Shown: piece after piece, positions 22,244-54,914 of the stretch
How the letters are laid out: each line of letters starts with the position of its first letter
How positions within the stretch are numbered: the first letter of the stretch is position 1
Virus record (IMG/VR): IMGVR_UViG_3300050821_018050
Coordinates: 64,001 to 128,000 of that record
DNA: 64,000 bases
Direction: 5' to 3' (one strand)
Source: a virus
Notes under the pieces: generated by a model
Seen by the model: only the letters and a program-made list of their open reading frames with translations
What the model was told of the DNA's origin: nothing
Databases searched by the model: none
Made by a program: the position numbers and the translations under genes

Positions 22244-22450
22244 TCATTTTCTAAACATTTCCTTAAACCAACGCCAGTGAGCCGCTTTGAATAATTCGGG
22301 ATGAAACATGTCGGAGCCCGAAGGGGGGAAACTTAGGGGGTTACTTTTAATCAATGAATCTACATGAGATTTATATTTGTCCCACCAATCATTAGCCTTT
22401 TGCTTGATTTCTTGCTGCTCGGAGAATTCTAAGTCTGACCATTGTTTCAT
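22244..22450 (-). CDS. Hypothetical protein, 68 aa, leaderless
   Basis: ATG is 6 nt after TATGAT. Confidence 0.7.
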   Translation of the reverse strand: MKQWSDLEFSEQQEIKQKANDWWDKYKSHVDSLIKSNPLSFPPSGSDMFHPELFKAAHWRWFKEMFRK

Positions 22451-54272: not shown

Positions 54273-54635
54273 TTAATAATCCTCTTCGAGAAATGTGTTG
54301 ATCCAAATCTGATTATCCTGGTAGGTTAATCCGGTAACTTTAAGCTGAGATGCGTTTCCCCATTTAGATGCCCAAACTGGTGTTTTTGAATTATAAGTAA
54401 ATTCTCCACCTTTATATCCAGTAAATTCTTTACCATTTAATGCTTCTTCAAGTTGTGCAATTAATGTACCAACCGTATTAAAATCGTTTGTTGTGGGTAC
54501 CAGAGCCACATGGTCGTAATAGCCTCTATAACTGCTAATGTCGCCTAAATTAACGGTTTCACCGTAATATTTGGTAACTACTGGATAATTAAGATTAAAT
54601 TTTTTGAGTTCATCTACAAGTTGTCCTAATCTCAT
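54273..54635 (-). CDS. Hypothetical phage protein, 120 aa (SYRGYY...GYKGGEF...TPVW)
   Basis: ORF track; SD AAGGA. Confidence 0.75.
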   Translation of the reverse strand: MRLGQLVDELKKFNLNYPVVTKYYGETVNLGDISSYRGYYDHVALVPTTNDFNTVGTLIAQLEEALNGKEFTGYKGGEFTYNSKTPVWASKWGNASQLKVTGLTYQDNQIWINTFLEEDY

Positions 54636-54748
54636 TATTTTTCCTTCCTGCCCCGAATTCTATATGAGGCGTCCATGGCAGCTAATACAACATTAGATCC
54701 TATTAACAGGAAAATAGAAAGACCGGGGTGCTGTAAAAAGAATTCCAA
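54635..54748 (-). CDS. Hydrophobic peptide, 37 aa (TTG start; MEFFLQHPGLSIFLLIGSNVVLAAM...)
   Basis: GAAAGG SD immediately after the RNA stem; TAATG overlap with ORF 54635. Confidence 0.5.
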   Translation of the reverse strand: MEFFLQHPGLSIFLLIGSNVVLAAMDASYRIRGRKEK

Positions 54749-54766
54749 TGGCTACCTTTCAAAAGT

Positions 54767-54860
54767 TAGGCGCTAGAGTCCGCTTGGATTGGTCTGCCAC
54801 CCAATAACTTCGAAAGGGGGATTAAGAGGTGAGGTAGCAGACTTGCACTCCAGCGCCTAC
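54767..54860 (-). ncRNA. Structured RNA (~95 nt; small RNA or 5' leader) with two stems and a pyrimidine-rich anti-SD-like loop
   Basis: Outer stem UAGGCGCUGGAGU/ACUCUAGCGCCUA (13 bp) and inner stem GUCUGCUACC/GGUGGCAGAC (10 bp). Each has one G-U pair on the - strand that would be an A-C mismatch on the + strand. It starts at the predicted +1 of the promoter at 54865-54893. Confidence 0.7.
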
Positions 54861-54864
54861 AATA

Positions 54865-54893
54865 AGAATACCATGGATTTGGCAGAAAAGCAA
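54865..54893 (-). promoter_or_regulatory. sigma70-type promoter TTGCTT-17-(TGg)TATTCT driving the structured RNA and array 3
   Basis: Reverse complement of 54865-54893. Confidence 0.7.
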
Positions 54894-54905: not shown

Positions 54906-54914
54906 CCTAATATT
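54906..54914 (+). promoter_or_regulatory. Putative late promoter motif CCTAATATT
   Basis: Recurrent 9-mer; ATG at 54922 follows with no SD. Confidence 0.7.

Follow-up and report, generated by a model that had tools for sequence, protein, structure and literature searches.

Small RNAs that bind Shine-Dalgarno (SD) sequences through unpaired UCCC motifs are established in bacteria, as in RsaE and RNAIII of S. aureus and RoxS of B. subtilis (PMC2790875). A pyrimidine loop resembling an anti-SD is carried by Cuckoo, ar14, and CcsR of Alphaproteobacteria (PMC4615179), and SprX and SprY of S. aureus phi12 are phage-borne regulatory RNAs of about 100-130 nt (PMC8501977). Among the bacterial Y RNAs, YrlB and Yrn2 are long hairpins with pyrimidine-rich loops, GNCGAAN0-1G is a putative Rsr motif, and YrlA genes are reported within 4 kb of Ro60 (PMC4201824). 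Little is known about regulatory RNAs in large phages of the lytic type. Here we describe a previously undescribed, covariation-supported RNA that is predicted to open an early transcript of an uncultured phage, and compare it with these systems.

The locus was analyzed in a window of 64,000 nt, which covers bases 64001-128000 of the record of a phage with a 159.8-kb genome (G000); the relatives and contigs compared with it were G001, G002, L026, L047, L051, L052, and L027. The closest isolate is Myxococcus phage Mx1 (52% for the capsid). The phage-encoded subtilase (Peptidase_S8; L002:10758-11594, minus strand), which has a signal-like N-terminus, stands at 38% to Bdellovibrio proteins and points weakly to Bdellovibrionota as the host. 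An Rrf2-family transcription regulator is also encoded by the phage (window 44830-45165, minus strand). The structural genes lie on the plus strand behind the motif CCTAATATT, and the small-gene arrays lie on the minus strand behind promoters of the form TTGACN-14-TGN-TANNNT. The RNA site is a strand switch, where the late motif faces the tail genes and an early promoter, back to back with it, faces a small-gene array. Around 20 further CCTAATATT sites were found in G000 and in G001, several of them back to back with a divergent early -35.

Table 1 Features of the RNA locus and its surroundings (window coordinates).
Feature	Position	Strand	Remark
-35 hexamer TTGCTT, early sigma70-type promoter	54888-54893	-	L026, G001, and L047 have TTGACT at this position
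Extended -10, TGG + TATTCT (TATTCT 54870-54865)	54865-54873	-	Hexamer identical in L026; fits the phage consensus
Predicted +1 (A)	54858	-	Seventh base past the -10, flush with the outer helix
P1 (outer helix), 5' strand	54847-54859	-	12 bp from +1, 13 with 54859
P1, 3' strand	54767-54779	-	11/12 pairs kept in L026
GCAA linker	54843-54846	-	Unpaired; conserved in register with L026
P2 (inner helix, 10 bp), 5' strand	54833-54842	-	Pairing lost in L026
P2, 3' strand	54792-54801	-	From the fold
Internal loop (4x12), 3' side, 12 nt	54780-54791	-	From the fold
Terminal loop, 31 nt	54802-54832	-	6 nt longer than first quoted
16S-tail-like segment of the loop	54832-54823	-	Not conserved
C-tract UCCCCCU of the loop	54821-54815	-	From fold and composition
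CUU-U-CGAAG motif of the loop	54816-54808	-	Conserved in L026
U4 run, 2-3 nt past P1	54761-54764	-	U5 in L026; candidate leaky 3' end
Spacer, 125 nt	54636-54760	-	Unstructured (z +0.38); without similarity to the L026 spacer; no convincing internal promoter
Opening gene (120 aa) of the early array downstream	54273-54635	-	PHROG 12889, function not assigned
Late-promoter motif CCTAATATT, divergent	54906-54914	+	Back to back with the early -35; precedes structural genes in G000 and G001
Tail-region gene, 214 aa	54922-55566	+	Synteny anchor

A preliminary description of this locus, made from the sequence, had proposed a promoter-driven structured RNA whose loop mimics the anti-SD tail of 16S rRNA. 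Its promoter, TTGCTT-17-TATTCT, both helices, the internal loop, and the minus-strand orientation were all reproduced in place. The promoter agrees with the E. coli consensus at only 7 of 12 positions and was missed by a generic promoter scan. Its credibility comes from the phage's own extended -10 consensus with the TG extension, and from synteny, since an early promoter sits at the same site in all relatives seen. In strong early promoters, an ATG or GTG lies at the seventh base after the -10 in 6 of 18 cases in G000 and 8 of 20 in G001. This is the commonest leaderless start position in the phage family, and a tRNA-like gene begins there too; we therefore placed the +1 at A54858. No convincing promoter was found between the RNA and the first array gene, so the same transcript would also have to read through into the array.

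That this is the only early promoter starting with a structure holds within the window; genome-wide, however, the tRNA-like RNA (L001:10760-10854, minus strand) also begins at the +1 of a strong early promoter. It lies outside the window at genome positions 54760-54854 (the coordinate match is coincidental) and has a 7-bp acceptor, a 5-bp D-stem, a long variable arm, and a T-arm, with no Rfam match. The homologue L044:14081-14169 was identified, and the RNA is kept in G001 with a differing anticodon loop (TGC or GCT reading versus CAT), a difference that points to a mimic of tRNA more than to a tRNA used in decoding. Another intergenic multi-stem RNA with a U-rich end follows a ribonucleotide-reductase-like gene (L003:6735-6860, minus strand; genome ~154735-154860) and has no Rfam match at gathering score.

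The minus-strand fold has a free energy of -40.9 kcal/mol and a z-score of -4.52, with 0 of 200 shuffles as good, in agreement with the folding check that had been proposed. The plus strand of the same site reaches a z-score of -2.63, and G-U pairs are present in the minus-strand fold, as in the original argument for this strand. The predicted RNA is ~95 nt long, and its first ~91 nt form an end-paired fold. P1 is the longest promoter-linked 5'/3' closing helix of the 160-kb genome, and a helix like it at +1 occurs in 0.07% of shuffles. The terminal loop lies where it had been described but is larger than originally given, and the CUCUU within it is predicted to be partly paired. The most open part of the loop is the C5 run, with a predicted unpaired probability of ~0.9 both here and in the RNA of the relative L026. 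The first 22 nt of the loop contain 10 C and 18 pyrimidines, which is equalled by 0.02% of genome windows. A standard intrinsic terminator hairpin was not found after the window RNA; a U4-U5 run follows the long-range helix in both RNAs. By these predictions, a promoter-linked structured RNA at the site is confirmed as real.

The site was read through the adjacent 214-aa gene in five relatives with the promoter in place and enough sequence after it (L026, G001, L047, L051, and L052); L027 was not counted because its sequence ends too early. The closest relative is L026, a Logan contig, in which the neighboring tail gene is 71% identical and the fourfold-degenerate sites of the neighboring gene are saturated against the window (27% identity). 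L026 contains an end-paired RNA of ~100 nt at the same offset from the promoter (z-score -2.5). P1 is kept there in register from +1, with six double and two single compensatory changes in 11 pairs, so the covariation anticipated in the preliminary description was found in this one relative. GCAA directly follows the helix in both RNAs, CUU(N1-2)CGAAG is located at nt 43-52 in both, and both have a short U-run at the 3' end. The first 51 nt of the two RNAs align at 27/52 (p ~3e-4, with an end point picked post hoc; p 0.14 at full length). The spacers downstream are unrelated, and no conserved small open reading frame was found. These observations support the view that L026 has kept a homologous RNA at the same promoter, and the pattern across the two copies suggests constraint in a narrow clade. 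The neighboring proteins are all singletons at 90%, which leaves no strain-level variants to compare.

The interior of the RNA has diverged. The window RNA folds into P2 and a large loop versus a three-way junction in L026. An unpaired C-rich tract is common to both, each with UCCCCCU and CCUCU, and a UCCC motif, the class trait of the SD-binding RNAs RsaE, RoxS, and RNAIII, is predicted to be unpaired in both. The shared C-tract 7-mer is by itself not significant (p 0.14), and the tract in L026 is its own 17-nt unpaired stretch further 3', off the aligned position (n=2). In the four more distant relatives (G001, L047, L051, and L052), no such RNA was found at the site and the promoter serves a protein gene instead. 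A small cysteine-rich protein (CxxxCxxCxCxCxxC) is encoded at or just after the same promoter in relatives without the RNA (L034:1273-1443 and L047:1-78, both minus strand). The absence from four relatives and the changed inner fold would suit a non-functional or vestigial structure. Nevertheless, a covarying 11-bp helix and in-register motifs persist across saturated neutral divergence, and a helix of at least 11 bp at +1 arises in just 0.27% of L026 shuffles, and we consider a vestigial structure scarcely probable.

A second possibility is that the structure acts in cis as a 5' leader, in which the end-paired helix would shield the 5' end of the polycistronic early mRNA, the U-run would serve as an attenuator, and the loop may pair with the ribosome-binding site of the first gene. 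The need of the array for read-through and the position of the helix flush with +1 are consistent with it, and so is the predicted duplex of -12.6 kcal/mol between the window loop and the first gene's start region. However, this pairing is not kept in L026 (-4.2 kcal/mol) and is missing from the fold of the whole leader. The two phages have kept the RNA but carry different genes downstream of it, four relatives have the same promoter without the RNA, and a hairpin that served for stabilization would require neither a length of 90 nt nor conserved motifs in its loop. A leader function is possible but unlikely. The pairing of the two ends right from +1, the U-run, and the fact that the RNA does not depend on the genes downstream favor a free RNA over a leader. 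The tRNA-like RNA has the same arrangement at the head of another early operon.

The preliminary description had further noted that the loop is one C short of the E. coli 16S 3' end. The difference is exactly as stated, but without that C the CCUCC core is lost. The 7-nt identity, which also holds for the Bdellovibrio 16S tail, is reached by 0.7% of genome windows and has a p value of 0.07-0.10 given the loop composition. With an ideal long SD, the window loop forms a predicted duplex of -13.9 kcal/mol (-17.5 for the real tail) and beats 97-99% of loop shuffles. The common AGGAG sites give only -5, and the best duplexes, at -14 to -15 kcal/mol, are formed with AGAGGUG and AGGGGG sites. For targets and SD statistics, Bdellovibrio was used as a stand-in for the true host, and gene starts were taken from our own simple gene caller and are approximate. 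Against real start regions from this phage, G001, and the stand-in, the loop performs slightly worse than its own shuffles and no target set stands out, which is unlike the expectation for a general SD blocker. Among the phage start regions, the window loop pairs best with an AGGGGGA ribosome-binding site, which is also strong for the L026 loop and belongs to the gene ahead of the major capsid gene (L004:17766-17772, plus strand); this may be chance. Phage SDs appeared to avoid the loop, but the same was seen in G001 and Bdellovibrio, and we discarded the signal as a property of the loop sequence.

These results bear on the proposal that the RNA mimics the 16S 3' tail and broadly occludes SD-led mRNAs, favoring leaderless phage transcripts. 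The proposal draws on the tail identity, on the strength of the duplex with a full-length SD, and on the weaker SDs of the phages, since GGAGG is present at ~1% of phage starts (G000 and G001) versus 14% in the stand-in and the host would suffer more. In the homologue, however, an unrelated U/G-rich sequence is aligned to the UCACCUCUUA segment, the longest match to the 16S tail is 4 nt, and CCUCC is lacking from that loop as well. In G001, where no such RNA was found, leaderless early genes are just as numerous and the SDs equally weak; these traits of the family therefore do not depend on the RNA, and the suggested link between the RNA and leaderless early genes is not supported. The majority of the array and late genes are internal, and many of them carry SD-like sites, the latter as the preliminary description had pointed out. 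Hence, the structured RNA of the preliminary description is supported, with its covariation and shared unpaired C-rich tract, but the 16S-tail mimicry is not, and we regard broad occlusion as very improbable.

We tentatively prefer to read the locus as the source of an immediate-early, non-coding small RNA, helix-closed and C-rich, which would block some of the G-rich ribosome-binding sites, a reading we rate as plausible though short of probable. The host sigma70 RNA polymerase would initiate at ~54858, and folding of the first ~91 nt would bring the 5' and 3' ends together in a 12-bp helix, protecting both. Either processing or a leaky stop at the U-run may free a ~95-nt species, and the small early genes of the array would be fed by read-through. 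The C-rich single strand, kept open by the scaffold, would pair in trans with certain G-rich sites for ribosome binding (AGGGGG or AGAGGUG types) in host and some phage mRNAs, which would lower the translation of the targets in the manner of RsaE and RoxS. The action would thus be that of a selective small RNA, not of a general copy of the 16S tail.

The stable fold, the pyrimidine richness, and the unpaired tracts in both RNAs argue for this small RNA, as does the L026 homologue at the same promoter with a covarying P1 despite saturated neutral sites and an unrelated spacer. The U-run after both RNAs, the lack of a conserved short open reading frame, and the strong duplexes with AGAGGUG and AGGGGG, the best phage site being ahead of the capsid gene, are also consistent with it. 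On the other side, just two copies are known, the C-tract is off the homologous position and the inner fold differs, real start regions are bound no better than by shuffles, a standard terminator is lacking, and pairing with mRNA does not account for the conserved GCAA and CUU..CGAAG. If the small-RNA reading is true, pairing to G-rich ribosome-binding sites would offer a compact test of RNA-based host takeover.

The conserved motifs may instead be read by a protein. As a Y-RNA-like scaffold or decoy, the RNA would present the helix, GCAA, and CUU..CGAAG to a host protein (e.g., Ro60/Rsr, a nuclease, or a defense protein), and the pyrimidine tract would be a protein landing strand, not an antisense seed. 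In-register conservation indeed falls on the helix and two short motifs and not on the anti-SD; GNCGAAN0-1G is exact in L026 and has one mismatch in the window copy; and the phage has a further conserved RNA, the tRNA-like one, with a variable anticodon loop. Against this, the motif lies at ~nt 45-52, mid-molecule and not near the 5' end, no TROVE (PF05731, Ro60) match was found in the phage genome or in two Bdellovibrio genomes, no Rfam Y RNA, YrlA, or YrlB model matches the RNA even at E 10, and the phage has no reverse transcriptase. We judge a protein-binding role rather unlikely. Its narrower form is improbable, namely an orphan Y-RNA-like decoy or hijacker, made at the first moment of infection by a phage without the partner gene, whose helix, GCAA, and CGAAG would engage a host RNA-binding or defense protein such as Ro60/Rsr. 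If the conserved motifs bind protein, the RNA would represent a new kind of RNA decoy.

Searches for further members and for known classes returned only the two copies. Rfam searches at gathering score and at E 10, run on the window, on the site itself, on L026, and on the remainder of the genome, gave nothing relevant, and BLAST of both RNAs against isolate phages gave chance matches or none. In IMG/VR and the JGI metagenomes, scans for exact sequences and for patterns gave 68 motif matches, all without the helix, and no third copy was found in the relatives or in these collections. A covariance model built from the window RNA alone, which scores the true L026 homologue at only E 2.4, found nothing in G001, G002, Mx1, and 151 Bdellovibrionota genomes; its single match lies inside a coding gene and was discarded, and given the poor score of the true homologue these negatives carry little weight. 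A descriptor fitted to both RNAs matches those two only, and not G001; as regards the two positives this result is circular. The C-rich stretch at window 22311-22345 looks similar but is part of a 68-aa open reading frame and is not a paralog.

Several classes were rejected. Neither ARAGORN nor Rfam gave a tRNA, tmRNA, SRP RNA, or 6S RNA match. For a retron msr-msd, no PF00078 (reverse transcriptase) match was found in the genome and no msd-like hairpin in either fold; the only retron-like trait is an end helix followed by G. The loops of Cuckoo and ar14 carry the motif CCUCCUCCC, and neither repeated hairpins with CCUCCUCCC loops nor a match to their Rfam models was found here. The class of 16S anti-SD mimics does not apply, since the CCUCC core is absent from both loops and the mimicry is not conserved, and membership of the bacterial Y RNA family fails for want of a Ro60 gene in the phage.

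Compared with the known systems, the window RNA resembles YrlB and Yrn2 in its paired 5'/3' ends, long hairpin, pyrimidine-rich loop, and CGAAG motif like the putative Rsr motif, but it belongs to a phage without a Ro60 gene, has no bulged Ro helix and no Rfam match, and its motif is not near the 5' end (PMC4201824). SprX and SprY share the phage origin and the approximate length, yet they come from a prophage, end at terminators of their own, and have known RNA partners, whereas the window RNA is found in a large phage, next to an early promoter (PMC8501977). The pyrimidine loop recalls the anti-SD-like loops of Cuckoo, ar14, and CcsR, without their motif, run of repeated hairpins, or Rfam match (PMC4615179). 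The closest likeness is with RsaE, RNAIII, and RoxS (PMC2790875), in the length of ~100 nt, the own promoter, the unpaired UCCC-type tract, the two C-rich motifs, and the possible pairing to G-rich sites. The window RNA is unrelated to them in sequence and by Rfam, has a long-range 5'/3' helix in place of a 5' hairpin and terminator, and heads a phage early operon, with a C-tract whose position is not fixed and targets that are only predicted. In conclusion, the sequence family of this RNA is undescribed, and its end-paired, operon-leading layout differs from that of the classical C-rich small RNAs.
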